A DNA stretch of 64,000 nucleotides. It comes from a virus. Location of the stretch: positions 21,155-85,154 of the IMG/VR virus record IMGVR_UViG_3300009593_000014, one strand, 5' to 3'. Of the stretch, positions 38,087 through 54,949 are shown piece after piece (position 1 is the stretch's first letter; every line of letters starts with the position of its first letter). The position numbers were made by a program, and so were the translations under genes. The notes under the pieces are model-generated. The model made no database searches and was not told the origin of the DNA. It was given only the letters and a program-made list of their open reading frames with translations.

Positions 38087-38419
38087 ATGGAAGATATAAC
38101 ACACCCAGAAAATAATAACATTTCAAGAAAAGACGGAAGTCAATTCTGGTATGAACTTAGCGAAGCCAATCCTGATGCCATTCTTTTTGATGGACCGGGC
38201 GATGATGATTTTTTTGATTCATGCATCGTAGGTTACGCTTGGAGAATAAATATGGAACCTGTTGTTGTTTATGATGAAGAAAAAATGATAGAAGTAATGA
38301 TGTTTGAAGGAGAGCTATCCTATGAAGAAGCAGTCGAATATTTATCTTTTAATACTTTTGGCAGTTGGTTTGGAGATGGAACTCCTCTTATATTGAGATC
38401 ATCAAAGAATGTACTGTAA
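38087..38419 (+). CDS. Conserved phage hypothetical protein
   Basis: VVYD..YEEAVEY..FN..G.W.G..TP pattern. Confidence 0.7.
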   Translation: MEDITHPENNNISRKDGSQFWYELSEANPDAILFDGPGDDDFFDSCIVGYAWRINMEPVVVYDEEKMIEVMMFEGELSYEEAVEYLSFNTFGSWFGDGTPLILRSSKNVL

Positions 38420-39165
38420 TGAAGGAAGCGGAGTTTTTCTTAGGCTGCCCCGAGCCTTATTGGTTGCGTAGAGATGATGTCACTGGTCCCTTCTTTGTGT
38501 CCAGACCGAGATTAGCAAGGCTTAAGAATCTTCATAAATCCAAACACAAATGGGCACTAGATTCAGGCGGGTTTACGCAGTTACATCAGCATGGGGCTTG
38601 GACAATCTCCTCGCAAGAATATGCCAACTTTGTAAAAAGATGTGACGACGAGATTGGCAATCTAGAATGGGTAGCGCCACAAGACTGGATGTGTGAAGAA
38701 ACAGCACTTCGTAAGAGTGGGTTAACCGTTAAGGAGCATCAAGATCGAACGGTTGATAACTTCTTAGATCTTAGACAAAAACTAGGCTCACTTGTTATTC
38801 CAGTCCTTCAGGGGTGGGATCGTGATGATTATCTAAAGTGCTGTGATTTATACGAGAAAGCCGGTGTGGATCTATCTTTAGAAAATGTTATAGGCTTAGG
38901 AAGCGTCTGCAGAAGGAATGCAGACAAAGAAATATCTGAGATAATCGACACTCTGCAGCCACTTAATCTTCACGGTTTTGGAATTAAAGGAAAATCCTAT
39001 GTAGACAACTACAATAAATTAGTATCTGCAGACTCAATGGCTTGGTCATTTACCGCTAGGCATTCAGATCCATTGCCCAACTGTAGCCATAGGAAATGCA
39101 GTTGGTGCTATGAATATGCAGACCTTTGGAGGGGTCGGATACTGAGTAGACTTGCGCCTGTTTGA
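38419..39165 (+). CDS. TGT/DpdA-like (deazaguanine DNA transglycosylase-like) protein
   Basis: LDSGGF, QDWMCE, PVLQG, GLGSVCRR, LHGFG and SADSMAW; C-terminal Cys/His Zn site. Confidence 0.7.
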   Translation: MKEAEFFLGCPEPYWLRRDDVTGPFFVSRPRLARLKNLHKSKHKWALDSGGFTQLHQHGAWTISSQEYANFVKRCDDEIGNLEWVAPQDWMCEETALRKSGLTVKEHQDRTVDNFLDLRQKLGSLVIPVLQGWDRDDYLKCCDLYEKAGVDLSLENVIGLGSVCRRNADKEISEIIDTLQPLNLHGFGIKGKSYVDNYNKLVSADSMAWSFTARHSDPLPNCSHRKCSWCYEYADLWRGRILSRLAPV

Positions 39166-39211
39166 TATTCGGTGTATCATTGCATAGCAAGAAAAAGGAA
39201 GGAAGTCTATT

Positions 39212-39514
39212 ATGAGTGATATTTGCCCAGAAAGTATGGAAAAACTAGTATTTGCTGGTGAATCAATTACTATCAAGCTTGACTTTTGGTTCGATTCCGA
39301 TCATTTTGATGACCAAGAAGAGGTTGATGAAGCTATAAGCTTCTGTCAGACAGGAGAGTTCGCATTCTGGGTTCAAGAAGCCGCAGATGCTCTGGTAGCC
39401 TCCGCTATGCACGAGTTTACGAGCACATACTCCGACTCTCCAGTTGCGAACTTGGAAAAACCATTAGGCATTACGATGTCTGCAGATATAACTTATGGCG
39501 GACCTCGTGATTAA
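39212..39514 (+). CDS. Acidic hypothetical protein
   Basis: SD present; stop overlaps the next start. Confidence 0.65.
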   Translation: MSDICPESMEKLVFAGESITIKLDFWFDSDHFDDQEEVDEAISFCQTGEFAFWVQEAADALVASAMHEFTSTYSDSPVANLEKPLGITMSADITYGGPRD

Positions 39515-40314
39515 TGAGAACATTTAGCTTCGGTGGCGGTGTCCAATCAACTGCTGTATTGGCATTACAAGCTTTAGGCGAACTACCTAAACCATACGAT
39601 GTGTATTTGTTCTCCAACGTAGGCAACGATAGTGAAGATCCTGAAACTATATCTTACTTTCACAACCACCACCTGCCTTTTGCTGAGAAGCATGGGATAC
39701 GCATAATTGAATTAATCAAGGAAAGCCGGGGCAGAGAGAATGAGACACTATGGGAGCAACTTCACCGAATGGAAGTTAGGTCTATCCAGATACCTGCATA
39801 CAGGGTAGGAAAAGGACCCGGGGGTAGAAAATGCACCAGAGATTACAAGATTCGTGTAGTTAGGAAATGGCAAAGACAAAACGGATCATCTAAAGATAAC
39901 CCTGTAGTGATGGGGTTAGGAATTAGTGTAGATGAGATCCAAAGAGCACGAACCAGTTCCCGACATGAGGACCAGATACTAGAATATCCCTTAATTGACC
40001 TAGGAATGGACCGTGACGACTGCTTTGAAGTCATAAAAAGAGCAGGATTACCCACTCCTCCACGTTCAGCGTGCTTCTTTTGCCCCTTTCACAGTAAAAA
40101 AGCGTGGATAGATCAAAAAGAAAACCGTCCAGAGCTATTCGCTAAGTCAGTAGCGCTGGAGAAAGTCCTATTGGAACGGTGTGAAATACATGGAAAAGAA
40201 CCAGAATACCTTAGCAGATACGGTGTTCCTTTAGATGAAGCCTTCTCCGAATATGGAAACATCCCCGATGATGACGGTCCCGAAGGATGCGAAGAAGCAA
40301 GCTGCTTTACCTAA
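39514..40314 (+). CDS. PAPS-reductase-like PP-loop protein
   Basis: SFGGGVQS, CT...K, GIS.DE..R, YPL and SACFFCPF. Confidence 0.8.
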   Translation: MRTFSFGGGVQSTAVLALQALGELPKPYDVYLFSNVGNDSEDPETISYFHNHHLPFAEKHGIRIIELIKESRGRENETLWEQLHRMEVRSIQIPAYRVGKGPGGRKCTRDYKIRVVRKWQRQNGSSKDNPVVMGLGISVDEIQRARTSSRHEDQILEYPLIDLGMDRDDCFEVIKRAGLPTPPRSACFFCPFHSKKAWIDQKENRPELFAKSVALEKVLLERCEIHGKEPEYLSRYGVPLDEAFSEYGNIPDDDGPEGCEEASCFT

Positions 40315-40970
40315 TCGGCGGCGCGGCGGCCCCCCTTTTCTTTTTTTGAAAAAATTTTTATTTCTAAGTAACAAAACTTATTGCCAATTTTGGGCCGTGA
40401 CTTAGCATTCCCCCCATTCCCCCATCCCCATTGCCTTAAAAAAGCATTAACAACATCTTTTAAACCTTCCAGAAAATCAATAAAAATAATGTAGCGCAGA
40501 CATTATATAGCACCAAAATATTTCCCCACGACCCCTATCCCACAATGCTCTCACAGCCACACACAGCCCCTCTAAGGACATCCTACACACAACAGAGGTA
40601 GACACCCTTGAAGCAAGCCAAGCTAAGCAAAATACTCTGAAAAAATAAAAAAAATAACACCCCGAAAAAGGAGGCCCCGCCCCCGCCCCATAGAAGCATA
40701 ATTCCAAAAAAACAAACAAAGTTTTTCCAAAATTTAGTACATATTTAAGAAGACCTGCATATATAAAAATAAAAAATAGAATTACTGTACAACCAGTACC
40801 CATAACCCCACTACACGTCTACCCCCCTCCTCATAAGCTGTGGTTCGTGGCTCGCTCGCTCGCTTCCTTTAACATCAGGAAGATATAAGTTTGGGCTGGT
40901 AAAAAAATTAGTGTGTATTTATAACAGTTATTATGTTTAAAAATAAATAAAAGAAATTTGTGTTAAAAGG

Positions 40971-40998
40971 TTGACATAGTTGTTTGATGCTATATAAT
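40971..40998 (+). promoter_or_regulatory. Sigma70-type promoter
   Basis: TTGACA-N16-TATAAT preceded by an AT-rich UP-like tract. Confidence 0.7.
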
Positions 40999-41031
40999 GA
41001 ACTTATCAAACAAAAGGCAGAGGAGCCAACA

Positions 41032-41361
41032 ATGCAAAAAGCAATGCGAAATATGACATCAGGAAACAACATAGAATGGTTGTCATTAGGCCGTGAATTC
41101 AACACGGCACAGTTCACAGGAACTCTTACCCATACTAACTTAATGAATGGTCACAGAGACGGAAACATACTAGGTGTAACAACTATAGAAGATAACGTAG
41201 CAATCACTAACTACATACAGTTTCCACATACTGAATCAATCAATGAGTGGATGAACAAAGAGGTTACACTAACTGCCTCAGTCAAGACCAGAAGACTACA
41301 ACACGCAGAAGAAGAAACCTATCTTCACACTGCTAACGCTTGGTCAATACGCTTAGCATAG
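41032..41361 (+). CDS. Cassette cargo: hypothetical protein
   Basis: SD GAGGAG before ATG 41032; followed by a terminator. Confidence 0.75.
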   Translation: MQKAMRNMTSGNNIEWLSLGREFNTAQFTGTLTHTNLMNGHRDGNILGVTTIEDNVAITNYIQFPHTESINEWMNKEVTLTASVKTRRLQHAEEETYLHTANAWSIRLA

Positions 41362-41376
41362 TTAACCAAAGAATAG

Positions 41377-41410
41377 AGACCGGCCCTTATGGGTCGGTCT
41401 TTTTTCTTTT
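41377..41410 (+). terminator. Intrinsic terminator
   Basis: AGACCGGCCC-TTAT-GGGTCGGTCT plus T-run. Confidence 0.85.
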
Positions 41411-41651
41411 GTATAGGGTATTCGATAAGCACTAGATCCAGGAGCTCCGCCTATCTGCCTGTGGTTCGTGGCTCGCTCGCTCGCTTCCTTTAACGTCAGG
41501 AAGATATGAATGGGGCAGTAGCTAGACTTAAGTATGTATTTGTAACTAGATATATGGTTAAAAGAAATAGTTAAAGTTTTTAGTTGCAAGGTTGGTATTG
41601 ACTGTCAAATTTGTAAACTAGATATATCGGCAAGAGTAAAGGATAAAACAA

Positions 41652-41948
41652 ATGCCACTAATAATAATAAACAAGACAGAAGAAATACCGGAAGAATGGA
41701 AGCAGCAAGACGGAAGATACCAAACACCAATGGTAATGGTTGACTTTGGCAACGTGCACAGTAATGGTGGTTTCGGTACTCACTTAACATTGGCCCCAAC
41801 AGTAGAGACCAGCGAATGGCGCAACGCTTATGGAATAGAGTTCCATCATGATGCAGGCGCTTATCGTCAAGTAACATCTGCACCGTGTAAGTTTATCGGC
41901 ATAGCACAAAACGACGGTTCCATCTTCTGGACTTATATTCCACAATAG
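41652..41948 (+). CDS. Cassette cargo: hypothetical protein
   Basis: SD AAGGA; terminator at ~41961-41990. Confidence 0.75.
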   Translation: MPLIIINKTEEIPEEWKQQDGRYQTPMVMVDFGNVHSNGGFGTHLTLAPTVETSEWRNAYGIEFHHDAGAYRQVTSAPCKFIGIAQNDGSIFWTYIPQ

Positions 41949-42186
41949 GACAAAAGAGAGAAGCCGGCCCTTAATAGGGCCGGTTTTTTTCGTTATATAG
42001 GGTGTTCGAGAAGCGTCTATTATTGAAGCTTCCCTGTCTTGCTGTGGTTCTTGGCTCGCTCGCTCGCTTCCTTTAACGTCAGGGGAATAGTAGTTTGGGC
42101 TGGACTAAGATTTAATACATAAATGATTGCAAAACTAGACTTAAGACTATAAGATAAAAATATCAACAAAAATAAAGGATAAAGAT

Positions 42187-42363
42187 ATGACAATAACCAA
42201 TAAACAAGTACAGATATTCAACACGGTGGCTAATCAACCCCGCTGTTGGCACTGCGAGGAGGATCTCTATTCTGACCATGAGACCGCTCATAGAGAGTTC
42301 GTAATAACAATGCATCATGCCTTCCATATCGCGTGCTACTTCGACCACACAAACGATCAATAA
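42187..42363 (+). CDS. Cassette cargo: 58-aa CxxC...HxxC zinc-finger-like peptide (not in ORF track)
   Basis: MTITNKQVQIFNTVANQPRCWHCEED...HAFHIACYFDHTNDQ; SD AAGGA. Confidence 0.7.
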   Translation: MTITNKQVQIFNTVANQPRCWHCEEDLYSDHETAHREFVITMHHAFHIACYFDHTNDQ

Positions 42364-42518
42364 GGCTGTGTTTCGTGGCTCGCTCGCTCTCTCCCTTTAA
42401 CGTCAGGGGAATTTAGGCATATAGATACGGTGTTTTTAATAGGTATTTATTAAATGCTTGACAAGACTATAACTATTAAATTAATCTGTAATTTATAAGC
42501 AACAGATGAGGAGACATC

Positions 42519-42683
42519 ATGGCTAAATATAAAGAAACCAAATGGGATATAAAGCCTAGTTACGACTATGAGGGTAAATGGGAAGTGTTCCATATTGGAC
42601 ATAGTAACTACGTTCGTAGCGTACACGACACACACGCTGAAGCATTAGCAGAAGCGCGGAGACTAGACAGGGAGAATAGATAA
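42519..42683 (+). CDS. Cassette cargo: 54-aa protein (not in ORF track)
   Basis: MAKYKETKWDIK...HDTHAEALAEARRLDRENR; SD GAGGAG; TTGACA upstream at ~42458. Confidence 0.7.
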   Translation: MAKYKETKWDIKPSYDYEGKWEVFHIGHSNYVRSVHDTHAEALAEARRLDRENR

Positions 42684-42790
42684 TGTTAGATCCGATTTAT
42701 AGACGGCGTAGGATCGCTGTCAGCGCTTTATTGGCAGTGTTCGTATTCTGGTTCTCATATCTAGGCGGGGAACTGCTTAGTAGCCTTTAA
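42683..42790 (+). CDS. 35-aa YRRRR-TM membrane peptide (not in ORF track)
   Basis: TAATG coupling; MLDPIYRRRRIAVSALLAVFVFWFSYLGGELLSSL. Confidence 0.65.
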   Translation: MLDPIYRRRRIAVSALLAVFVFWFSYLGGELLSSL

Positions 42791-42989
42791 CCAGCAGGCT
42801 GTGTTTCGTGGCCCGCTCACTCTCTCCCTTTAACGTCAGAGAAACTATATACAAGGACATTATAGCTTTAATACATAATCCCCAACCGCTCGCTGTTGTT
42901 CGTTGGCTCGCTAAACCGCAAGATTGTGCATGCATGCGCAAAGGCTTTTAATAAACATTGGTGAATAGATAGAACTTAAAAATAATGAC

Positions 42990-43019
42990 TTGACTTGATC
43001 TAATCAGTTATGCCATAAT
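42990..43019 (+). promoter_or_regulatory. Sigma70-type promoter with extended -10
   Basis: TTGACT-N18-CATAAT with TG extension. Confidence 0.65.
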
Positions 43020-43040
43020 TTCTTTATGGCGATATCACCA

Positions 43041-43104
43041 CTACCAAACAGCAACGCCCCGCTCATCGTTGCAGCTCCGGTAGCAATTAGTAGAGCAGGA
43101 AGGA
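43041..43104 (+). ncRNA. Candidate 5' leader pseudoknot RNA (type-A copy 1; others at 45854-45916 and 48721-48790)
   Basis: Covarying P1, P2 and loop-to-3' pairing across three copies. Confidence 0.6.
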
Positions 43105-43115
43105 AACGTGATCTT

Positions 43116-43442
43116 ATGGCAACGGATTGGGGTCAAGCAATTGACCTATCCGAGATTGCAAAGTCTCGTCGTGGCGCAACAGCGACCTACGAGCAGGGAC
43201 TACTTGACGCACTTACTGAGGCATTCAGTAACGGTCAAGCACTTGCAGTGTCACCATTGGCAGTTCTTCAAGAGTCTTTTAAGACTGACGAAGAATACGC
43301 CAATGCGAAACAAGCCAACGCTGCAGAGATCAGGAAGCACTTCAACCGCTTGGTTGAATTGGGACTGATCGCTGACGGTTCAAAGGTGTCCATAAATTGG
43401 CACCCAGAGACCGGCGTTCCACAAGTTTCGCTTAAAGGGTGA
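43116..43442 (+). CDS. WHPE-family paralogue A1
   Basis: WGQAIDLSEIAKSRRGAT..INWHPETGVPQVSL; SD AGGAAGG; in-frame upstream ATG at 43026. Confidence 0.85.
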   Translation: MATDWGQAIDLSEIAKSRRGATATYEQGLLDALTEAFSNGQALAVSPLAVLQESFKTDEEYANAKQANAAEIRKHFNRLVELGLIADGSKVSINWHPETGVPQVSLKG

Positions 43443-43454
43443 TTCTCGGTCCAT

Positions 43455-43510
43455 CTGACTCTTAAACGAGGAACCGGAGTGACTAGCAAGCACTTGGCAA
43501 CAGAACAAAC
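43455..43510 (+). ncRNA. Candidate 3' RNA motif of type-A cassettes (others ~46263-46318 and 49156-49212)
   Basis: A 35-nt block is identical in copies 1 and 2; the stem shows compensatory changes in copy 3. Confidence 0.55.
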
Positions 43511-43516
43511 TACTAA

Positions 43517-43550
43517 AGAAGACCGGCTCGGGGGAGCCGGTCTTCTTCTT
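43517..43550 (+). terminator. Intrinsic terminator
   Basis: AGAAGACCGGCTC-GGG-GAGCCGGTCTTCT. Confidence 0.8.
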
Positions 43551-43787
43551 TGTGTGGGTGCATATCAGGAGCTGCAGCTGCAACGAGTTCTGCTGTTGTT
43601 CGTTTGCTCGCTAAACCGCCAGATTGTGCATGCATGCATGGCAATATTTAATACGAATAGTTATGCAGCTAGAACTTAAATAAGGATTATCTACTGTCGT
43701 AAAATTCAAATGTTGTTGTTTGTGTTAATAGTTGGATACGATCAGTTTTGTCATATTAAAAACATTTAACTTTGGAGGTTAAAAATT

Positions 43788-44297
43788 ATGAACGTTTACG
43801 GATCAGGAGGAGGGCTAGTAAATCTAAACGGTTTACATGATGGCGCAATGCCTCTTATGTGGAAATTAGCCTGTATACATATCGGGCTAGATATTGCACC
43901 CCTATTTAGAGGGTTCGCTATTGCTAAGACCCTTAATGATGTTTATTACGTCTACACCATGAATAGCGATAATGGTGTTAATTGGTGTATTGACTCATTT
44001 GTCGTCTATGACGAATATGGCGAGGGAATGCTGAACTGCCTTATGCACGTTCAGGCTGATGTAGCAGACCTACAAGAAGTAATAGATGGTGGCGGCAAAC
44101 GAGCGATATGGCTCGCTGACTACAATCCAGATAGCGGTGTTGACATTGGTTATGTAGATGAGAGGGAAGTAGAGGAAGCAGATATTTCTGTAGAAGATTA
44201 TGCCCGCTTCTATATCGGTCTTACCCAAGCGATCATTCAGCATGGCAATAGAGAAGATGGCGCTATCAGTTTTGATTGGACTAAGACAATTCCATAA
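43788..44297 (+). CDS. Cassette cargo: unrelated 169-aa hypothetical protein
   Basis: SD GGAGG; terminator at 44309-44348. Confidence 0.78.
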   Translation: MNVYGSGGGLVNLNGLHDGAMPLMWKLACIHIGLDIAPLFRGFAIAKTLNDVYYVYTMNSDNGVNWCIDSFVVYDEYGEGMLNCLMHVQADVADLQEVIDGGGKRAIWLADYNPDSGVDIGYVDEREVEEADISVEDYARFYIGLTQAIIQHGNREDGAISFDWTKTIP

Positions 44298-44599
44298 GGC
44301 ACCTAACAAAGACCCTCATGTTGCAGCTGCAGCGTGAGGGTCTTTTTTGCTTTATGGGGTCTTGTCTTGAGTGTTCGAGGAGCCACTATTCCGACCAGCA
44401 GGTGGAAAATAGGGCTGTTGTTCGTTTGCTCGCTAAACCGCAAAATTGTGCATGCGTGCATGGCAATATTTAATGCGAATAGTTATTCAGCTGGAACTTA
44501 AATAAGGATTACCAGGTTCGAGAAAGTTGGATGTTGTTGTTTATATTAAAAATATGTATCCTCGGATATGTCATATTCAACTAAGAGAAAGGTTATGAC

Positions 44600-44929
44600 A
44601 TGGCAACATTAGACAACTGGGGAGAAGCAATAGATCTCTCCGAAATTAAGAAAGCGAAACGGGGTGCGACTGTTCATTTAGAACAGGGGCTTCTTGACTT
44701 CCTTTCTAAAACTTTAAGTGCTGGTCAAGCAGTAGCACTTACTGGTTTCACTATTGACCCTAAAAAATTCCCTGATGAGAAAGACGCAGGCAATGAACGC
44801 CAGCGCATTGGGGCAGTTATTCGTCGGCATGTTAATCATCTTCGTGATGAAGGATTAATCCCTGATGAGAAAGTGTCTATTAATTGGCACCCAGAAGCGG
44901 ACTATCCGCAGATTAGTTTCAAGTCTTAA
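44600..44929 (+). CDS. WHPE-family paralogue B1
   Basis: RIGAVIRRHV..INWHPEADYPQISF; terminator at 44945-44976. Confidence 0.88.
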   Translation: MATLDNWGEAIDLSEIKKAKRGATVHLEQGLLDFLSKTLSAGQAVALTGFTIDPKKFPDEKDAGNERQRIGAVIRRHVNHLRDEGLIPDEKVSINWHPEADYPQISFKS

Positions 44930-45207
44930 CTAATCCACTCGCTTAAGGCCCTCATGCTCCGGCATGAGGGCCTTTTGCGTTTATGGGGTAAGTCCCAGGA
45001 CTAGAACGCTGTTGTTCGTTGGCTCGCTGACCGCCCAATTGTGCATACATGCGCGATGGTTTTTAATACGAATAGTTATGTAGTTAGTACTGAATTAGGA
45101 ACTATCGATAACCGAGAAAGTTAAATCGTTGTGTTTAGTTTAAAAGTTTGGTTACAATCTCAAGAGTAAACATAACCGCCACCAGATGTGGCAGAAAGAG
45201 AAAAACA

Positions 45208-45537
45208 ATGGCAACAATGGATAACTGGGGTGAAGCAATAGACATCTCAGAAATTAAGAAAGCGAAAAGGGGTGCAACCGTTCAGCTTGAGCAGGGGCTC
45301 CTCGATTTTTTGCAAACCACGCTTGGCGCTGGTCAAGCAGTGGCGCTCACTGGATTTCAGATAGACCCTAAAAAGTTTTCTGACGAAAAAGATGCTGGCA
45401 ATGAACGCCAACGTATCGGTGCAGTGATCCGTAGGCACGTTAATTATCTTCGTGATGAGCAACTAATAGCCAACGAAAAAGTGTCAATCAATTGGCACCC
45501 TGAAGAAGACTATCCTCAGATTAGTTTTAAATCTTAA
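45208..45537 (+). CDS. WHPE-family paralogue B2
   Basis: MATMDNWGEAID; promoter TTGTGT-N18-TACAAT; terminator at 45554-45585. Confidence 0.88.
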   Translation: MATMDNWGEAIDISEIKKAKRGATVQLEQGLLDFLQTTLGAGQAVALTGFQIDPKKFSDEKDAGNERQRIGAVIRRHVNYLRDEQLIANEKVSINWHPEEDYPQISFKS

Positions 45538-45928
45538 ATAGTCTCTTTCACTTAAAGCCCTCATGCTCCGGCATGAGGGCTTTTTGCTTTTTCCAACCAG
45601 CAGGTGGAAAAGTTGGGCTGGTAAAAGTTGGGGTTCTCATGGATTAAAGTTTGGAACTTTGCTAGTCCCAGGACTAGAAGCCTGTCGTTCGTTGGCTCGC
45701 TGACCGCAAAATTTAGTATGAACTTATGGCAATTTTTAATAGGAATAGTTCTGTAGCTAGTCCTGAACTAGGAACTATCGAGAACTTAAGAAAATAAAAT
45801 ATGTTTGAAAATATAAATTATGACGATAGGAATAAGGCATGGAGATATCACCACTCAATAGAACTAGCGCCACGCCCATCGCTGACGCTATTGGGCAACC
45901 ACTAGGGCAGGAAGGATACTTGATTGCA

Positions 45929-46258
45929 TTGGCAACTTCATGGGGGTCATCTATTGACCTTAGTGAGATCGTTAAAGCCTCTCGTGGCGCTACGGCGACA
46001 TATGAGGAAGGCTTGCTTGATGCTCTTGCTGAAACACTCGGTAAGGGTCAAGCATTAGCGTGCACACCTATGGCGGTACTTGCTTCTGACTACGCAGAAG
46101 AAGACGATTACCGCAATGCTAAGCAAACTAATGCGGCAGAATTGCGTAAGCACTTTAACCGCTTGGTGGAACTCAAAAAAGTTCCTGCTGGTTCTAAGAT
46201 TTCTATAAATTGGAATCCCGAAACCGGCGTGCCTCAAGTTTCGCTTAACAACAAATAG
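45929..46258 (+). CDS. WHPE-family paralogue A2 (WNPE variant)
   Basis: TTG start aligned to A1; in-frame ATG at 45839; terminator at 46322-46350. Confidence 0.82.
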   Translation: MATSWGSSIDLSEIVKASRGATATYEEGLLDALAETLGKGQALACTPMAVLASDYAEEDDYRNAKQTNAAELRKHFNRLVELKKVPAGSKISINWNPETGVPQVSLNNK

Positions 46259-46664
46259 GCAACTCACAATATGAGCAAGACTCGGAGTGACTAGCAAGCA
46301 CTTGGCAACAGAACAAAACTCAAGCCCCTCGCAGACGCGAGGGGCTTCTTACTTTCTATGGGTTAATAGCCTCGCCTCGAGAACTGTATCGCTGTTCCTG
46401 GATCTAGGGCTGTCGTTCGTTGGCTCGCTTCCTTATAACTTTTAACGGTAGGAAAAATTGTTGTTCTCCCTGGTATGAATTAAGTGGATATTTCAAAACG
46501 ATAGTTAATCGTCCTGGTCTAAGACAAAACACTAACTGATTAAGCAGCAGGAGCTGAATTAGGAACTATTGACTACCGAAAAAATTAAATGTTGTTGTTT
46601 ATCTTAAAAGCCTGTATCTTCATATATTCAATAAACAACTATTAAACCTTAAGGAGGTTTTGTT

Positions 46665-46985
46665 ATTGACAATCAATGGGGCGAGGCCATAGACCCCTCG
46701 GAAATAAAGAAAGCAAAGAGAGGTGCGACTGTTCAACTAGAGCAGGGGCTACTTGACTTTTTGCAGGAAATACTCAACAACGGACAAGCGGCACAAGTCA
46801 CGGCTTACAAGATTGATCATAAAAAGTTCAAGACTGAAGATGCTGTAGCCAATGAGAAACAAAGAATCGGTGCAGTAATTCGCCGTCACGTTTCTCATCT
46901 CCGTGATGAGAAATTAATCGCCAATGCTAAAGTTTCGACTAATTGGCATCCTGAAGAAGATTATCCGCAGGTTTCATTCTCGTAG
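46665..46985 (+). CDS. WHPE-family paralogue B3 with ATT start
   Basis: The frame extends upstream of ORF 46761 as IDNQWGEAIDPSEIKKAKRG; AAGGAGG lies 7 nt before the ATT; in-frame stop at 46650. Confidence 0.78.
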   Translation: MDNQWGEAIDPSEIKKAKRGATVQLEQGLLDFLQEILNNGQAAQVTAYKIDHKKFKTEDAVANEKQRIGAVIRRHVSHLRDEKLIANAKVSTNWHPEEDYPQVSFS

Positions 46986-47068
46986 ATAATCTTCTCCCTT
47001 AAAGCCCCCTCATAGGTTCCTGTCAGCACTAGATCCTTTCTGAGGGGGCTTTTTGGCGTTTATGGGGG

Positions 47069-47120
47069 AAGTTGGGGATCTCGTCTGTTTTTGGAAGTTG
47101 GGGATCTCGTCTGTTTTTGG
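47069..47120 (+). repeat. Perfect 26-bp tandem duplication
   Basis: aagttggggatctcgtctgtttttgg x2, just before header copy 12. Confidence 0.9.
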
Positions 47121-47325
47121 ATCTTGGGCTGTCGTTCGTTGGCTCGCTGACCACAAAATTGTGCATGCATGCATGACAATGTTTAATATGAATATTTCTG
47201 TAGCTAGTACTGAATTATGAACTATCGACTACCGAGAAACTTAATTAGTTGCATTTAGTTTAAAAGTTTGATTACAATGTCAAGAGTAAACACAACCGCC
47301 ACTATGTGGCAGAAGGATAAAGACA

Positions 47326-47655
47326 ATGGCAACAATGGATAACTGGGGAGAGGCAATAGACATCTCCGAAGTTAAAAAGGCAAAAAGGGGTGCGACTGTT
47401 CAACTAGAGCAGGGGCTACTTGACTTTTTGCAAACCACGCTTGGCAATGGTCAAGCAGTAGCACTTACTGGATTTCAGATAGACCCTAAGAAGTTTTCTG
47501 ATGAAAAAGATGCAGGCAACGAACGTCAGCGCATCGGTGCAGTAATTCGCAGGCACGTCAATCATCTTCGTGATGAGCAACTGATTGCTAACGAGAAGGT
47601 ATCCATCAACTGGCACCCAGAAGAGGATTACCCACAGATCAGCTTTAAATCTTAA
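47326..47655 (+). CDS. WHPE-family paralogue B4
   Basis: Protein near-identical to B2; promoter TTGCAT-N18-TACAAT; terminator at 47671-47702. Confidence 0.88.
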   Translation: MATMDNWGEAIDISEVKKAKRGATVQLEQGLLDFLQTTLGNGQAVALTGFQIDPKKFSDEKDAGNERQRIGAVIRRHVNHLRDEQLIANEKVSINWHPEEDYPQISFKS

Positions 47656-47972
47656 CTGGTCCCCTCGCTTAAGACCCTCACGCTACGGCGTGGGGGTTTT
47701 TTGCGTTTATGGGGTAAGTTTTGGAAAGCTGGTGGAATACCAGTCCCTCGAACACTATAAGCCTTGTCCCAGGACTAGAACGCTGTCGTTCGTTGGCTCG
47801 CTTCCCGCGAAAATTGTGTGCACATATGCACACATTGAGTACATATTTATAGTTAAAAATATATCTATTCCTGGTACTAGAAGTTTGGTAGTTGCGTTTG
47901 GCTTTGAACTATGTTTATAATTTAAAGAGTAAACACAACCGCCACCTTTGTGGCAGAAAGTAGAGTAAAAAC

Positions 47973-48302
47973 ATGAGTACCAATTGGGGGAGCGTTATAG
48001 ACGTTTCCGAAGTTCAGAAGGCAAGCAGGGGGGCGACTGTTCAACTAGATCAAAGCCTCCTTGACTTCCTTTGTGAAGCCTTAAGCGCCGGGCAAGCAGC
48101 CGCGCTTACTGCCTACCGAGTAGATCCTAAAATATTCTCTAGCGAGAAGGATATGGCAAACGAGAAACAACGGATAGGCGCGGTAATCCGTAGGCATGTC
48201 AACAACCTTCGTCATGATGGTTTGATAGCCGAAGGCAAAGTATCAATTCATTGGCACCCAGAAGGCGGATACCCGCAAGTACAACTGCTTAGTTATTCCT
48301 AA
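47973..48302 (+). CDS. WHPE-family paralogue B5
   Basis: IHWHPEGGYPQV; promoter TTGCGT-N18-TATAAT; terminator at 48320-48350. Confidence 0.88.
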   Translation: MSTNWGSVIDVSEVQKASRGATVQLDQSLLDFLCEALSAGQAAALTAYRVDPKIFSSEKDMANEKQRIGAVIRRHVNNLRHDGLIAEGKVSIHWHPEGGYPQVQLLSYS

Positions 48303-48801
48303 GCAGATCCCTTCACTCGAAGCCCTCACGCTACGGCGTGGGGGCTTCTTGGCGTTTATGGGTAAGTTTTCGGAAGCTGGTGGAAGACAAACGCTGTCGT
48401 TCGTGGCTCGCTTCCTTATAACTTTTTGCGGTAGGAAAATTTGTTATAGCTATTGCCTGACTTTAATGCATGCCCCGGAAAGTGTTTTGAAAGAATAATG
48501 CTCCCCCTGGTGGTTAAAACTTTTTAGATGGTGTATTAGTCCACCGAAGTTCAATTTTGTTTCAATGGTGGCTTCTCAGAACCGACTTTTTTGCATTAAA
48601 TGTCTTAATTGAAAGTATTTCAAATAAATAGACCTTCCTCGAATATTAAAGAATTTGAAAAAAAGTGTGTTAATTCTTGATTATGAAGGTAACTTATTTC
48701 ATATGGATATAACTTATTCACTTAGCAATCCGAGAAGCCCTATGATGACCGGCGCTCAAATAGCTATGCAACCAAATAGGTCTGTGGAGCATAATTCTTT
48801 T

Positions 48802-49143
48802 ATGGGAAATCCTATATCTGATGAGTGGGGCGAAATAATTGACCTCGGTGCCATTGCGAAATCTCGCAGGGGTGCCGTTGCTAGTTATGAGCAAGGCTTG
48901 CTAGATGCTTTGACCAAGGCTTTTAAAGCCGGTCAAGCTTTGAGTGTTACTCCGTTCACGGTTCTTGAGTCTGACTATAAGTCAGAAGAAGAATTTAAGA
49001 ACGCTAAGCAATCCTATGCAGCCGAAATCCGCAAACACTTCCGCCACCTAGTGGTTACTGAAGTAGTTGCGGAAGGTTCCAAGGTTGCCATTAATTGGCA
49101 CCCTGAAACCGGCGTGCCTCAAGTTTCGCTTAGAAGCTCTTAG
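48802..49143 (+). CDS. WHPE-family paralogue A3
   Basis: EWGEIIDLGAIAKSRRG..INWHPETGVPQVSL; in-frame upstream ATG at 48703; terminator at 49234-49262. Confidence 0.82.
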   Translation: MGNPISDEWGEIIDLGAIAKSRRGAVASYEQGLLDALTKAFKAGQALSVTPFTVLESDYKSEEEFKNAKQSYAAEIRKHFRHLVVTEVVAEGSKVAINWHPETGVPQVSLRSS

Positions 49144-49474
49144 ACTCATCAAAAACTGAACCCCTTGAGGGTGAACGGAGTCGCCACTAGCGACTTGGCA
49201 CCAGAACCAAACTAGTAAAGCGTAATATCCACCAAGCCCCTCGCAGATGCGAGGGGCTTCTTACTTTATAAATGTCTCAGCTGCAATTTTTATGTGGCAC
49301 CTCTCAAGGCTCAAGGGCTGTCGTTCGTGGCTCGCCCAATGACGGTGTTGAATACTAATGAAAATTAATATAACTATAGATTATATTGAGTAGACATATC
49401 CCTAGCGTAGCTTCGCTATCGTGCCGGAGTCACGATAGCAAAAATCTTTAATATATATTTATTATATAGAGTGC

Positions 49475-49790
49475 ATATTTTTCCCCACACACACCTTTTA
49501 TATGTTTTATACATAATTGGCCGGGTATTCCGAAGGAACCTGAAAGGCAAACTTGTGCCCGCAAAATATTATTAATCCTTAAGCATTATATTGTGTATAT
49601 ATTTTTCCCCACAAATAGCTTTTAGTTTGGCGGGTATTCCGAAGGAACCCGAAGGGCAAACTTGTACCCGCAAAATATTATTAATACTTAACCATTATAT
49701 TGTATGTATATTTTTCCCCACGAATTACTATTAATCTTTGCGGGTATTCGACGAAGGAGAAGGCGCAGCCCTTGTACCCGAAAAATTATT
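49475..49790. repeat. Three ~110-bp tandem units with branched GNA-triloop hairpins
   Basis: TTTTCCCCAC...CGGGTA-TTCCGAAGGAA-CCYGAARGG-...-TRCCCG; structured cores at 49522, 49631 and 49741. Confidence 0.85.
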
Positions 49791-50811
49791 GTTAATTATT
49801 TCCGTTAATTTAATGCGCTATTTCCTAACACTTTTTGTTATTAATAATTATTATTAAAAAGTATTATCTTTAATGGTTTGGCATTATAGGGTGGGTATAT
49901 ATTTCCCCACAAATATAAACTTTTTTTATATGTTCCAAGATGAACGGAATTAGTTATAGATAAGTGTGGGCGATATATATTACAAGTTACACCTATGTAA
50001 TTTTAAAGATAAGTATTGGAAGCTATTGTTAGAGATATAAGTTGGCGATTAGGTTGGCTGATAATATATAAAAGATATTTATATAGATATCCCTACACGA
50101 TAAATCTACTCTTTATTCCTTATCTGTTTTTATCAAAGGTATCTGTAATTAGTATAAATGTAGGTCTGAAATGTTAGAGTTATTTTCCCCCATTATTTTT
50201 ACGGTCCAAAGTTAAAGCAATTGAAACGGAATAAGTTTATTGCAATCTCTAAACGATATCTATCAGAGGAAGAAATGAAAGATAAAAAATATTAATAATA
50301 AATACTATTAACTAGAATTATTTTTATAACGGAGACATTATACGGCCCACATTTAATTCCCCGGCCAACCCTAATATAAATAAATAAAATATATATATAA
50401 TCGGACCTAAGTGTCTATTCTCTATAGAGAGAGTAACAATAAATACCCTCCCAGAACCTACATAAAAGCTTTAATAAATACAAAAAGAAATAAATAAAGT
50501 TTATTTAATTACAATACATCTGTGAAAACCTATTAAAATAGGTAATATTATAAGTGTTTGTTTTATATGACCAGTCAGATGCTATCGTTATTTTAATCTG
50601 AGAGGCTATTTAAGTGCTCTGTGGGGGGTTTTGAGATAGTTTTTATGTTTAATATCATCTAGGGAGAAACAATCTTCTCTATGGATTACTCTATGGGTTA
50701 TAACTATTCTTATCCCCCGATTTCGTTGTCGCACTTAATTTTAATAATTAGCAATTTGAATGCATGCCCGCGTTAGCTTTAATTTCTAATTCAGAATAAT
50801 AATTTTGGGCA

Positions 50812-50851
50812 TAAAAAATCCCGACTACAATTTCTCATAGTCGGGACTTTT
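50812..50851. terminator. Bidirectional terminator ending the minus-strand gene block
   Basis: AAAAAA-TCCCGACTA...TAGTCGGGA-CTTTT. Confidence 0.8.
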
Positions 50852-50934
50852 ATCTAATCTTATTCAGTTATATTTATTCAGGGACCGTGAATATATTTTT
50901 ATGTGATACAACTGATAAGTTAGAGCTTTAAATA

Positions 50935-51162
50935 TTATTCTTCGTCGTCAAAATAATTGAGTTGTTCTATCTCCCCCATATATCCATCAACACATCTCCA
51001 ACCCTTATACAAATAAGTAAAATTACCTTCACTATCTATTTCATCAAAATCCGGTAATTCTATTTTATCTATATCAGTTTCTTTTCCAAAATATTGATAT
51101 GTAAATGATACTTGATATTGAAATACAGGTTCATCTCTATATAGTTTTGCTACTCCAACCAT
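50935..51162 (-). CDS. Hypothetical protein
   Basis: Tightly coupled minus-strand operon. Confidence 0.65.
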   Translation of the reverse strand: MVGVAKLYRDEPVFQYQVSFTYQYFGKETDIDKIELPDFDEIDSEGNFTYLYKGWRCVDGYMGEIEQLNYFDDEE

Positions 51163-51482
51163 TATTCTACCTTATCACTTAATTTGTAAACATTACTTTT
51201 AGTTAATAATTCAGATTCAATACCCCACTCTACAGGTTTATCTATATCGCCTAGTTGATTTTTTCTATCATCAGATATGTCTATATCTACAAGACATTTT
51301 ACATGATCAAACATTAATTTAAACATTAGTTCATCTGGAATGTCTATGTTATATTCCACACATATCCTAAAGAAGTTCTTAGTTTTTTCTGGTAATGTGT
51401 ACCATAAATATTCATAAGATTCTTCATCTACTTCTCCACCTTCAAGAAAATTTATTGCTGCTTCGTGTATATTCATTTTCAT
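51162..51482 (-). CDS. Hypothetical protein
   Basis: Coupled ORF. Confidence 0.65.
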   Translation of the reverse strand: MKMNIHEAAINFLEGGEVDEESYEYLWYTLPEKTKNFFRICVEYNIDIPDELMFKLMFDHVKCLVDIDISDDRKNQLGDIDKPVEWGIESELLTKSNVYKLSDKVE

Positions 51483-51484
51483 AA

Positions 51485-51760
51485 TTATTCATCCTCATTA
51501 TTGTTATTAATAGCTTCATTTAATTCTCTTACCCCAGCAATAAAACCTGGTCCATTACCTTCTGGATCTTGTAATATATCTAATCTAGCAACAAAGGTTG
51601 TATCTTTATCTTCAACCTCTACTTCTATATAAGGATAAACATCATCATATTCTATTACTGCTTCTGCTTTACTTATTTTTGCACCAAACAAAACGTCTAA
51701 CTCTTTATTCATCATGTCTGATTGTGCTTTTAATAACTCGTGGTAACTTTCAAAATTCAT
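51485..51760 (-). CDS. Hypothetical protein
   Basis: DPEGNGPGF motif; coupled ORF. Confidence 0.7.
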   Translation of the reverse strand: MNFESYHELLKAQSDMMNKELDVLFGAKISKAEAVIEYDDVYPYIEVEVEDKDTTFVARLDILQDPEGNGPGFIAGVRELNEAINNNNEDE

Positions 51761-51761
51761 C

Positions 51762-52469
51762 TTAAGCCTTCCTTTCGGGCTTTACTATATCTATTACTTG
51801 ATTTACTGTTGCATCTTTAAAATTGCTTCTCATATCTTGATACCTTTTTATTCTTGATACATTTACGTTAACATGATCTATAACGTGATTAATAAAATCA
51901 GTATCATTTTTGACACCTTCATCTATATCTTCAGTTATTATCTTAGTGGCAAGATCTAAATCTTGATCTTCATCAACTATAGTTTCATTTCTAACAATAG
52001 GTTCAAATGTTTCTATTACATTATAATTTATAGGTAAATAATTACCATATTCAATCATCCATTTATCACCATCTTCTCCACACCAAACAATATATCCTTC
52101 TATTAATTCTGATACGAATTCAAAGAATAAATCTTCTGCACCTATTTTAGAATGATAACTAAAATTAACTAAACTTCCATCTAAGTCATGATCAAATTCA
52201 AAACCTAAATGATTAAGAACATATTCAACAAATGCTGGATTATCATCTAATAATTCTTTATCATAATCTTCTGGCATCCATGAATACCAATAAGTACTTT
52301 CTCCTTTAATAGGACTAAAACTACCACCTTCTTTTAAACAATTAAACATAGGTGCATTCATTGCCCTCCATCTAATTGCAATCTTATCAAAATTTTCTGC
52401 TGGTATTCTTAAGGTTTCTTCTTGTACTTCAACATAGTAACCCATATTATCTACCCTTTCTCCAACCAT
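51762..52469 (-). CDS. Hypothetical protein
   Basis: GGS..WYSWMP..GEDG..W pattern; probable start at MGYY. Confidence 0.7.
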   Translation of the reverse strand: MVGERVDNMGYYVEVQEETLRIPAENFDKIAIRWRAMNAPMFNCLKEGGSFSPIKGESTYWYSWMPEDYDKELLDDNPAFVEYVLNHLGFEFDHDLDGSLVNFSYHSKIGAEDLFFEFVSELIEGYIVWCGEDGDKWMIEYGNYLPINYNVIETFEPIVRNETIVDEDQDLDLATKIITEDIDEGVKNDTDFINHVIDHVNVNVSRIKRYQDMRSNFKDATVNQVIDIVKPERKA

Positions 52470-52710
52470 TTTTTAAATGAGGTTGGCAATTAGCTTTGCT
52501 TAAAAGTATTTCTTTTAAGGCTTCTACTGATTTCTTTTTATTAATAAAAGATCTTCCATAAGTTTGAGAATCACCTAATTCTTTTTCATCTTCCCATAGG
52601 TCATTCATAACTTCAATTCTATCTTCAACAGCATTCATTAATGCATACCATTGAACTTCTGTTAACTCTAAATCTAATTTCACCCTTCTAGGTGATTGTT
52701 TTGTTTTCAT
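52447..52710 (-). CDS. Hypothetical protein
   Basis: Start trimmed to MKTKQSPRR. Confidence 0.6.
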   Translation of the reverse strand: MKTKQSPRRVKLDLELTEVQWYALMNAVEDRIEVMNDLWEDEKELGDSQTYGRSFINKKKSVEALKEILLSKANCQPHLKNGWRKGR

Positions 52711-52800
52711 AAAAATATAACTTTCTAAATAAATAAAATATGTATTCCAATATAATATTATTGTAACAACAATAAATAATTTAACTTCCAATAATAAAAA

Positions 52801-53340
52801 CTATTTACAAACCCAATGTCTAGGTCCACCTCCTTCATAAAATAACCAACTAGCAACTCCAACATTAGCAATAGGATCTAATATATCAAAACCTTCAAAG
52901 CCTGCTTTAATAGATCTCTCTTCCCAAAATTTAGGTAAATGTTGAAACCAACCAGAAGCATTTGATGTTATATGAATAGCATCACTATAAGTATCATCTT
53001 TATGTGCACTAGACTCACAAAAAGTAATTCTAAATGCCCACTCCCAATCTTCTTCTAAAAAATACTCATGTATTAATTCTTCTAAAGTAGGTTCAGAAAT
53101 ATCTTCAACTGTGGTTGTAGTTATAGTTTCTAGAATACTTAAATCTAATCCTTCATAAATAGTTGTACTCGTAGTCGTACTAGTAGTCGTACTAGTAGTT
53201 TCAACACTATAAGATATATTTTGCGTTAACACTTCTGGAGAAGTTAATTCTTTACGATCATTTTCACATTTACTCAAAGCAAATATTCCCAGAACTAAAG
53301 CAACAACTAATATCCAAGTTATTTTCTTATACTCTTCCAT
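52801..53340 (-). CDS. Membrane-anchored lysozyme-like/lytic transglycosylase (SLT-like)
   Basis: N-terminal TM, Thr-rich linker, CES..ASGWFQ..W..DP.AN...HW.C. Confidence 0.75.
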   Translation of the reverse strand: MEEYKKITWILVVALVLGIFALSKCENDRKELTSPEVLTQNISYSVETTSTTTSTTTSTTIYEGLDLSILETITTTTVEDISEPTLEELIHEYFLEEDWEWAFRITFCESSAHKDDTYSDAIHITSNASGWFQHLPKFWEERSIKAGFEGFDILDPIANVGVASWLFYEGGGPRHWVCK

Positions 53341-53347
53341 TACTTAC

Positions 53348-54839: not shown

Positions 54840-54949
54840 TTTTTTCTAGCCACTCCCAGCCTGTATTAAATTTATTTTGTAAAGTTTGACAACTATTATC
54901 CCAATGGTCAGGGTCAAATTCTTCTTCATCTTCAAATTCTTTTTCATCT

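Follow-up and report, generated by a model that had tools for sequence, protein, structure and literature searches.

A motif-headed, co-oriented cassette array in uncultured marine phages, possibly akin to the PeSL elements of T4-type phages

In the 64,000-nucleotide window analysed here, part of an 85,154-bp virus record, about 14 small genes are kept as separate cassettes with the same 20-base motif at the head of each. The motif is the 5′ boundary mark of every cassette. What kind of system is this, and what is the motif for? The explanation proposed here, to which we give about an even chance, is a mobile, PeSL-like array of regulatory cassettes in a new phage lineage, with the motif as a predicted protein-binding site for a private promoter class. 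The initial annotation, which described an undescribed cassette system with the motif as a recombination, nicking or protein-loading site, is partly supported: the cassette system is real, and the motif heads every unit.

The motif has a 19-nt form (7 matches) and a 20-nt form with one extra T (8 matches), confirming the 15 co-oriented copies first counted; all lie on the forward strand between 40837 and 49335 with at most 2 mismatches, against an expectation of 0 in 100 shuffles. A fuzzy search of both strands of the whole record returned the same 15 forward copies, 0 reverse copies and none outside the array, so the motif, noted as absent elsewhere in the window, is confined to the array and to one strand rather than spread at similar density over the genome in both orientations. 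Its 14-mer core gave 8 forward and 0 reverse matches (control, 0 and 0). Successive copies are 621, 583, 324, 433, 94, 700, 822, 594, 673, 728, 719, 654, 611 and 924 bp apart, with 12 of 14 intervals in the 300-900 bp range given initially. The motif had no match in Rfam, and when one genome from each of 185,579 species was scanned, several copies turned up in no cellular genome. Its 5′ edge is sharp: pairwise identity is 0.33 at positions -12 to -1 and 0.89 at +1 to +12 in the window, with corresponding values of 0.30 and 0.89 in the relative L035 and 0.36 and 0.94 in L037.

Copies 1 to 4 (40837-40855, 41458-41476, 42041-42059 and 42365-42383, on the forward strand like all array features below) belong to the 19-nt subtype A. 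Behind them lie the genes of cassette 1 (41032-41361), cassette 2 (41652-41948), cassette 3 (42187-42363) and cassette 4 (42519-42683 and 42683-42790), and a promoter-like box, present as a box-like heptamer at offset 71 in cassette 1 and located at 41528, 42111 and 42435 in the next three. Copy 5, its box and ATCCCCAAC make up an ‘empty’ 94-bp cassette 5 (42798-42891) at the boundary between subtypes A and B. Copies 4 and 5 do start 1 and 7 nt past a stop codon, that of cassette 3 in the case of copy 4, with no terminator between. Copy 6 (42892-42911; box 42947), of the 20-nt subtype B, heads a long gene of the WHPE family (43026-43442), and copy 7 (43592-43611; box 43647) an unrelated 169-aa gene (43788-44297). 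WHPE genes follow again behind copies 8 (44414-44433; box 44469; gene 44600-44929), 9 (45008-45027; box 45062; gene 45208-45537), 10 (45681-45700; box 45735; long gene 45839-46258), 11 (46409-46428; box 46480; gene at about 46665-46985, without a canonical start codon), 12 (47128-47147; box 47182; gene 47326-47655), 13 (47782-47801; box TTGAGTA at 47835; gene 47973-48302) and 14 (48393-48411; box 48462; long gene 48655-49143). Copy 15 opens a terminal module (49317-49400; box TTGAGTA at 49386) with no gene behind it. The subtypes are positional, and neighbouring copies are most alike.

The eight genes of cassettes 6 and 8-14 form one paralogous family, for which a fold search gave no informative match and comparison with HTH_62 a match below threshold. 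Cassettes 1-4 and 7 carry unrelated genes; among 27 cargo proteins, 17 resembled none of the rest at E ≤ 0.01. There is an excess of terminator-like sites (26 against 8.5 ± 3.3 expected), and such hairpins follow most cargo genes (41375-41402, 43516-43547, 44308-44345, 44945-44974, 45554-45583, 46322-46347, 47671-47700 and 49234-49259). The tail TTTATGGG, initially assigned to the usual unit, follows the terminator at 5 of 14 junctions (6 with one variant), all behind WHPE-type genes.

The motif does not stand alone: it forms the 5′ end of a composite module of 75-90 bp, and the earlier picture of a recombination or nicking site set by itself in inert DNA gives way to that of the upstream block of a conserved promoter-like module. 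Behind the motif come a run of GCTS tetranucleotides, an A-tract with a TTG-like -35 and, after about 17 nt, a -10-like box (TTGAGT, TAGAGT or TTTAAT, then RCATAT). Block I of the module reads GCnGTnGTnCG, and the GCTS run after it varies in length. Of 62 curated modules, 37 have the box at offset 50-82, where random anchors gave 4.5 ± 2.1 (maximum 13), and the box-anchored consensus has an A-tract and T.G about 19 nt upstream of TTGAGT. Twelve of the 18 forward matches to the extended box in the 85-kb record fall within the array or next to it. Module types A, B and C have little in common except motif and box, with the motif kept at 17 or more of 19 positions.

Is the module a promoter? In several relatives the start codon, with an SD, lies 35-53 nt past the box (6/12 cassettes in L035, 5/6 in L036, 2/5 in L037 and 2/2 in L014, counting only those with a called ORF), and on this geometry we read the module as a promoter-like unit, the putative promoter of its cassette. 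Window cassettes have long leaders, with 70-155 nt between box and start codon, and in two of them a consensus sigma70 promoter stands apart from the box; here the chief promoter may therefore be something other than the box. Those two promoters (40971 and 42990) were the only strong ones placed before a cassette by a simple sigma70 scan, which found no overall enrichment of promoter-like sites (12 against 21.9 expected); the sigma70 promoter initially given for the usual unit needs correction to that extent. The second position of the box is T rather than A in most copies, which makes it poor as a standard -10. Block I and the box are 54 to 73 nt apart, with no helical phasing in this variation, a misfit to a classical face-of-helix activator. 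The linker has no conserved structure (mean z = +0.16; z < -2 in 2 of 56 modules), which argues against hairpin models and attC-like ones.

The module is conserved, with lineage-specific variants, in relatives from marine metagenomes. A loose motif expression gave 156 forward and 14 reverse matches over the window segment and 39 loci, and in the relatives diverged copies of the motif form arrays that run in the same direction as the genes; 26 of the 29 loci of at least 2.5 kb contain direct 11-mer families that lack any reverse copy. The motif survives, in variant forms, in lineages that share only 40-46% identity in their WHPE proteins. ‘Empty’ units sit at subtype boundaries in Rel1, L018, L035 and L014 as well, gene-less terminal copies end the arrays of L018, L014, L036 and L037, and in L035 the motif follows stop codons directly (gap of 0 nt). 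Motif orientation tracks the direction of the array, not the nearest gene. To the left, the array is preceded by DpdA (38365-39165) and two unknown genes (together 38365-40314, forward strand), with DpdA upstream of the array in L014 too, and by a box-like element with TTTCCCCAC (40505-40533, forward). Past the array, a gene-poor spacer (49460-49910, forward) contains repeated units of box, TTTCCCCAC and branched hairpin, with homologues in L018 and L030. A converging low-GC arm (50935-63917, reverse strand, 28% GC) with WhiB (53348-53773) and HNH (60497-60823) genes is a conserved right-hand neighbour. The phage encodes an HK97-type capsid, DnaE and WhiB, and its host is probably actinobacterial.

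How do the cassettes move? Compared with Rel1, a relative about 90% identical, and with a population variant at least 99% identical, the window differs in cassette order and content; the order is not fixed. In Rel1, cassettes 1 and 2 are swapped with their tails unmoved at 94% identity, and the first motif base has kept its position and has not travelled with the body. Cassette 3 is absent, the junction falling within the first 6 nt of the motif, and in R6, R7 and R9 leaders and genes are recombined. In the population variant, contig X3 fuses the left flank to cassette 2 with the joint at the motif edge, and between L047 and L048 homology sets in again precisely where the motif starts. Motif position 12 is T in 8/8 B-type copies of the window and C in 7/7 Rel1 copies, a concerted change. 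Recombination by way of the motif, as first proposed, holds in that crossovers occur at its edge; they also occur 80-130 nt inside leaders and in terminators, and the record has no integrase or resolvase. Such crossovers beyond the motif, together with the fine mosaic of leaders 1 and 2 in the Rel1 comparison, are a signature of homology-driven exchange.

Several known systems invite comparison. Integron attC arrays are built from single-gene units bounded by a repeated element, with some genes ending at the next repeat and cargo mutually unrelated, all of which is found here. Unlike them, the array has no IntI-type recombinase, its repeat is unfolded and lies upstream of its gene with a promoter-like unit, and crossovers fall at several points. 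In the MotA-dependent middle promoters of T4, a phage promoter class is set by an upstream factor site; here too a conserved asymmetric element upstream of the -10 would mark one co-regulated set of phage promoters, although it lies farther upstream, at about -75 to -45, and its distance is not phased.

The system was initially called undescribed, yet PeSL (promoter-early stem-loop) elements, the mobile regulatory cassettes of T4-type phages, are a precedent (Arbiol et al. 2010, PMC2839356; Comeau et al. 2014, PMC4122927). In both systems, composite regulatory modules of about 100 bp recur in a hyperplastic region, between small ORFan genes that are non-essential. Close relatives differ in that whole cassettes have been inserted, deleted or replaced, and the crossovers lie at varying points within the modules. 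Transcription of each cassette is apparently self-contained and, with no dedicated recombinase, the phage's general recombination machinery is invoked. In contrast to PeSL elements, the present array belongs to an unrelated phage lineage, all its copies lie strictly co-oriented in one 8.5-kb array, its module opens with a 20-nt G/T/C-rich motif and tetranucleotide run outside the sigma70 promoter, the stem-loop terminator is outside the module (separately upstream or absent), and one expanded family dominates the cargo. Stoperators of cluster A mycobacteriophages are 13-mers found genome-wide in temperate phages and bound by the immunity repressor (PMC9283540). They likewise are short asymmetric sites in many copies in short intergenic spaces, oriented with transcription, and the hosts are probably actinobacterial in both cases; here, in contrast, the site is 19-20 nt long, is confined to one array and invariably has a promoter-like box behind it, and neither a repressor nor an integrase was found.

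In the PeSL-like reading, a sequence-specific protein, phage- or host-encoded, would read the motif as duplex DNA and switch on, off or insulate a private promoter class, giving joint control of the cassettes. No candidate motif-binding protein and no sigma70 gene was identified in the phage record. General homologous recombination would use the repeated module and the shared terminators as a portable crossover region, a role suggested by the direct orientation of the repeats and the RecA-like gene of the phage. Crossovers there would shuffle self-contained cassettes without breaking genes, as with T4-type PeSL elements.

The sharp 5′ edge and the junctions at it would also fit a site-specific event, in which the edge is the crossover or nick point of a putative phage enzyme and cassettes are inserted and excised integron-like without a known integrase. 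The abrupt start of conservation at motif position 1, the cassette 3, X3 and L047/L048 junctions, the stop codons of L035, the unrelated genes behind one module and the HNH endonuclease conserved in the neighbouring arm all speak for such an event; we nonetheless consider it improbable, as the record (82% complete) lacks a tyrosine or serine recombinase, other crossovers lie in terminators and well inside mosaic leaders, the 1/2 swap leaves the first motif base behind, the module has no attC-like folding and each cassette has its own promoter-like module. Could the uniformity of the motif instead be that of a functionless passenger, the part of a tandem duplication that is best preserved and that gene conversion keeps uniform? 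Adjacent copies are indeed most alike, subtypes are positional, one sub-array shows the concerted T/C change and eight cargo genes are paralogous. This is the least probable of the readings, because the motif persists in modules alike in little else and, with variants, across lineages with diverged WHPE proteins, many unrelated genes stand behind it, and conversion of a 20-nt tract without 5′ flanking homology is unlikely to hold a sharp edge.

Two further readings keep the motif as a signal. A bound protein might halt upstream RNA polymerase in an orientation-dependent manner and so isolate the cassettes, as a stoperator-like roadblock or insulator. An asymmetric motif strictly co-oriented with transcription, its position right behind the previous gene or at the stop codon where the terminator is missing (copies 4 and 5; L035), and the flexible distance to the downstream box suit this, as do the two sub-blocks with a 1-nt spacing variant, expected for a monomer with two DNA-binding domains (PMC9283540). 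Against it, the sites are in the array only, no repressor or integrase is found in the record and strong intrinsic terminators already lie upstream of the motif in most window cassettes; we regard it as unlikely. An RNA-level signal on read-through transcripts, either antitermination (nut- or ops-like) or processing, appears equally doubtful. It would be loaded as polymerase from a strong upstream promoter, for example that of an ‘empty’ unit, crosses the motif, and would let that polymerase pass the many terminators. ‘Empty’ units place a strong box about 25 nt ahead of the motif that opens the next sub-array, terminators are abundant, read-through must carry transcription across motifs 4 and 5 and the L035 motifs, orientation follows the array rather than the nearest gene, and the motif presumably resembles boxA and ops. 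Set against this, there is no conserved hairpin beside the motif, no Rfam match and no phage gene recognised as NusG-like or N-like, and in most window cassettes the cassette's own transcript would lack the motif, because it lies behind a strong terminator and upstream of the promoter-like box.

Judged from the sequence comparisons, the array is conserved across a family of uncultured, WhiB-encoding marine phages, and related phages have lost, swapped and replaced cassettes through crossovers in the repeated units.

The asymmetric 19-20 nt motif was first annotated as recurring 15 times on one strand, and a both-strand fuzzy search of the entire 85,154-bp virus record (classed linear, 82% complete) returned the same 15 copies, all within one 8.5-kb array and none beyond it. 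The window takes up bases 21155-85154 of this record. The 19-nt form has 7 matches and the 20-nt form 8, each of them on the + strand and within 40837-49335 of the window, with 0 expected from 100 shuffles. The placing of copies 4 and 5 at 1 and 7 nt past a stop codon was correct, and the terminators described for the array were borne out by an enrichment of terminator-like hairpins (26 vs 8.5 ± 3.3). These sit apart from the promoter-like module that starts with the motif, in the variable tails; copies 4 and 5 lack them, as does L035, one of the marine-metagenome loci of relatives. Other parts of the described cassette held at some junctions only: the TTTATGGG tail precedes the next motif at 5 of 14 junctions (6 with a variant) and is missing at the others, and a simple sigma70 scan found consensus promoters at cassettes 1 and 6, not one in each cassette. 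The cassette array itself is real. Does the motif occur elsewhere? An exact scan of viral_contigs gave four single matches in unrelated contigs of 56-73% GC, which we take as chance. The same scan of genome_contigs gave at least 120 stretches with one match each, in scattered genomes that are mostly high-GC judged from their names, and no stretch with several copies among the matches listed; as only single-copy matches appear among those listed, neither a host regulon nor prophage relatives are indicated. We dropped an nhmmer model of the motif for lack of sensitivity, as it gave 31 matches and missed known copies. Compared by eye with consensus sequences, a sigma54 promoter, an ECF promoter, a LexA half-site, a PhoP repeat and a DnaA box did not fit; Rfam gave four sub-threshold matches only, all to terminator-like families, and no tRNA was found. 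The E. coli Chi octamer lies on the + strand at 47728 and 48376, in tails between terminator and motif, and the Chi-related CAGGTGGAA occupies such terminator-motif tails at 44399 and 45601 (+ strand); with two occurrences each, these are too few to interpret.

What follows the motif? A register alignment of the 15 window copies, plus 62 modules from six genomes, gave a consensus order of block I (GCnGTnGTnCG, at the 5' end of the module), a GCTS tetranucleotide run of variable length, TACGnCCGCGAAAT, 20-25 variable bases and TTGAGT. Of 62 modules, 37 have the -10-like box in its strict form at offset 50-82, where random anchors give 4.5 ± 2.1, and in 14 of the 15 window copies the offset is 54-56 or 70-72. 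In the box-anchored alignment the A-tract and T.G end about 19 nt upstream of the box. This arrangement of UP-like tract, -35, 17-nt spacer and -10 is promoter-like in its sequence geometry, the box being an imperfect -10. In four relatives (L035, L036, L037 and L014) SD and start codon come just 35-53 nt past the box, which leaves no space for a second promoter, so that the module must be the predicted promoter of the cassette. Window leaders are longer (70-155 nt), with an extra consensus promoter in two cassettes. Of 18 forward matches to the extended box in 85 kb, 12 fall in the array or its flanks; given this near confinement, motif and box define a private class of predicted promoter. 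The copy number of the tetranucleotide run (GCTC or GCTG) varies at 40855-40870, 41476-41490 and 42059-42075 of the window and in relatives, so that the distance from motif to box changes by steps of 4 nt, much as with a microsatellite. Conserved hairpins or palindromes after the motif were first assumed and turned out not to be general across modules. Between block I and the box the sequence has no unusual tendency to fold (mean z +0.16; 2 of 56 modules below -2), and this unfolded linker rules out attC-like, N4-hairpin-like and boxB-like readings and points to a motif probably recognised as duplex DNA. We put at about even the chance that the motif is a factor-binding site within the promoter module; a roadblock, an RNA signal or a crossover site are the alternative candidate roles.

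Relatives of the array were recovered through WHPE, the paralogous protein family among its cargo. Searching the phage collection with the array by megablast gave no match, and WHPE relatives were absent from viral_contigs and genome_contigs and present in metagenome_contigs only, where the WHPE-based search yielded 39 marine-metagenome loci. In nearly all the larger loci the motif copies are arrayed in one orientation, and both block I and the tetranucleotide run take forms specific to the lineage. Within a genome, conservation begins abruptly at motif position 1, and the subtypes of motif and module are positional along the array. 'Empty' units of 94-104 bp, made of motif, box and then ATCCCCAC, are found where subtypes meet, both in the window and in the closest relative (Rel1), L018, L035 and L014. 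The orientation of the module tracks the array rather than the nearest gene; in L030 and L024 the module adjoining an opposite-strand, TTGACA-driven WHPE gene points away from that gene. The cassettes of L035 (L035:250-2292) are compact, 281-392 bp with unrelated genes of 60-77 aa, and their stop codon, often in CTAG, either directly adjoins the following motif or overlaps its first base.

The array is a hyperplastic region of small genes without known function. Eight WHPE paralogues of 109-162 aa, in two subfamilies, occupy cassettes 6 and 8-14, and unrelated small genes fill cassettes 1-4 and 7. For nine of 10 scanned cargo proteins Pfam has nothing above its curated cut-off, which the cassette 4 protein barely passes (DUF2188, 22.6 vs 22 bits), and one of the 10 matches a PHROG family, itself of unknown function. 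Non-WHPE cargo was recovered in the closest relative only, and 17 of 27 cargo proteins are singletons, the same module standing before many mutually unrelated genes. WHPE is the largest cargo family, a ranking that is all we retain from a loosened cassette regex that over-called (419 cassettes), and is small: it has 8 proteins in 90% clusters, and a search among 1.84 billion gave 32 representatives at E <= 0.001. Its AlphaFold model (pLDDT 83.8) matches no PDB fold at E <= 0.001; a sequence profile found nothing in PDB, and the protein atlas held no usable match. BFVD gave one convincing match to the model, an uncharacterised phage protein. A sub-threshold HTH_62 match and weak matches to winged-helix-like folds are no more than hints. 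Several details of the WHPE genes may be added. The cassette 11 gene (46650-46985) has no in-frame ATG, GTG or TTG after the upstream stop; a good SD is followed 7 nt on by ATT at 46665, and the gene either uses this rare start or is a decaying copy. The three long-type WHPE genes, and no others, share a conserved element of about 30 nt between stop and terminator, at 43478-43510, 46285-46315 and 49180-49215, and Logan unitigs break there. Just upstream of the SD of WHPE cassettes 9, 12 and 13 is a small hairpin (GCCAC, variable loop, GTGGC) at 45176-45194, 47296-47312 and 47939-47956, listed on the - strand by the terminator scan. Several relatives carry one extra opposite-strand WHPE gene just past the array end, with its own TTGACA promoter (L030:4139-4543 on the - strand, L024:9914-10318 and L022:1541-1870); the window has no such gene.

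Are the cassettes shuffled, as the initial annotation proposed? Relatives have no fixed cassette order, and the breakpoints include the motif. In Rel1 (L021 joined to L013, 99.96% identical across their overlap) the body of cassette 2 comes first and that of cassette 1 second, with both tails unmoved at 94% identity and the first motif base staying with its position. Rel1 also lacks cassette 3, the junction falling within motif positions 1-6, has a leader resembling that of cassette 6 in front of the cassette 7 gene, and carries a WHPE paralogue without window orthologue as well as other leader/gene recombinants; leaders 1 and 2 are finely mosaic between window and Rel1. L022 and L024 differ by one extra cassette, and L047 and L048 by a tail indel ending exactly at the motif. 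Sequencing runs were compared as assembled contigs, with parts of the window uncovered by contigs in X2-X4. In run X3, where 27 of 32 contigs placed on the window are at least 99% like it, one contig runs from 40826 straight into 41459 and so links the left flank, at the motif, to cassette 2; it is a population variant, at least 99% identical, with one cassette lacking or moved. X3 also shows a loose contig end at 42094. A contig of run X1 matches cassette 2 from 41492 on; the 255 or more bases before that point are unlike, with no motif in the last 30 of them, and the contig may show this cassette in a variant setting. At motif position 12 all 8 B-type copies of the window have T and all 7 copies of Rel1 have C, a split that is concerted evolution. 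What drives the exchange? The tyrosine recombinase family PF00589 has 0 matches in the 85-kb, 82%-complete record (its control matched in 14 of 14 genomes), and no serine recombinase was found in the 85-kb record. Cassette shuffling by homology-driven exchange would fit the spread of crossovers over several conserved places, the mosaic tracts and the presence of a RecA-like gene. No sigma70-family gene was found in the record, and a search for T7-type RNAP gave no match, its control being silent as well.

By Pfam the record belongs to a tailed phage (portal, S78 protease, HK97-type capsid, tail tape measure) with RecA-like, Pol III alpha, DnaG-type primase and DnaB genes; it further matches ribonucleotide reductase, glycosyltransferases, C5 methylase and DpdA, and no T4-type core gene was found among the proteins scanned. 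A longer contig with the same proteins, of 100,040 bp, also exists. From about 50 kb GC drops from 42% to 28%, and this low-GC arm, read on the - strand, encodes WhiB (PF02467, E = 4.3e-18), which suggests an actinobacterial host, and an HNH endonuclease. The small - strand genes at 50000-64000 include WhiB, an HNH + KTSC pair and DUF4241, and a weakly Sie-like protein of the arm is 70% identical to its L014 and L017 relatives. A conserved protein of 179 aa is encoded at 52801-53340. Could the GC step be an assembly artefact? Five relatives (L014, L017, L024, L025 and L030) have a homologous arm in synteny; in L014 DpdA lies upstream of the array and the GC step recurs (array 54-60%, arm 39-41%); and a Logan contig of run X1, possibly the source sample, covers 47403-53000. 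The architecture is therefore conserved and not an assembly chimera, with DpdA module, array, gene-poor spacer and converging WhiB arm as the conserved order. Repeated units without an ORF, at 49460-49910, 40505-40533 and about 50180, consist of a -10-like box (e.g. TAGAGTGCATAT), TTTCCCCAC, a branched hairpin of about 42 nt and an A-run. TTTCCCCAC occurs 5 times forward and once in reverse in 85 kb, and homologues of these units stand after the array in both L018 and L030; small RNA genes and a DNA signal are possible readings of the units.

Which known system does the array resemble? PeSLs (promoter-early stem-loops), as the cited accounts present them, are modules of about 100 bp, promoter plus stem-loop, in hyperplastic regions of T4-type phages, where homologous recombination deletes, inserts and replaces ORFan cassettes, with variable crossover points and a recombinase given there as not known (PMC2839356, PMC4122927). 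Here too, relatives differ by cassette indels and replacements with crossovers in repeated modules (Rel1, X3, L022/L024, L047/L048). The repeated module is composite and of promoter-like geometry, its promoter predicted from sequence and its box an imperfect -10. The present system differs in that the stem-loop or terminator is separate from the module instead of integral to it, that the copies form one co-oriented array, that the module adds a non-promoter motif and a tetranucleotide run, and that the phage has an HK97-type capsid, Pol III alpha and WhiB and is not a T4-type myovirus. The account in PMC2839356 describes PeSL-type shuffling for T4-type phages only, and its authors asked about occurrence elsewhere. 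The array works like a PeSL system, as a variant thereof.

Other systems fit less of what was found. The placing of copies 4 and 5 after stop codons had been likened to that of integron attC sites. The integron features looked for are not those of the array: PF00589, the IntI-type family, is unmatched in the incomplete record, the repeat does not fold into an attC-like imperfect hairpin, and each cassette has its own promoter-like module and mostly a terminator, whereas integron cassettes are promoterless and depend on a single shared promoter. Stoperators are described in PMC9283540 as genome-wide repressor sites, asymmetric and ruled by orientation, and the array shares with them an asymmetric site co-oriented with transcription; it departs from them in number and spread, with 15 copies in one 8.5-kb array vs more than 20 sites genome-wide, also within promoters. 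Stoperators go with a temperate phage and its cognate two-domain immunity repressor; here no integrase was found in the incomplete record and no repressor was recognised among the proteins scanned, many small ORFs lying outside that scan. A lambda-type nut site differs again, the array having no conserved transcript hairpin after the box and no Rfam match. A more specific proposal is that the motif would be the site of a dedicated phage protein that cuts, nicks or pairs DNA exactly at its 5' edge, giving integrase-free capture and exchange of gene cassettes while the same site insulates the transcription of each cassette. We regard this as improbable; the protein acting on the motif would possibly be the conserved HNH enzyme or an expanded WHPE paralogue. 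Any protein specific to the motif, should there be one, could be a transcription insulator or recombination factor of a new type.

The array extends PeSL-like logic, with a different repeated module, to unrelated uncultured marine phages of a probable actinobacterial host, and the population variant at least 99% identical to the window catches the shuffling in the act. It offers a cis element that is defined and open to test, namely the 20-nt motif and its lineage-specific variants, and in WHPE a new expanded protein family whose function is not known. Motif and WHPE together are entry points to the regulation and renewal of accessory genes in phages of abundant uncultured marine bacteria.
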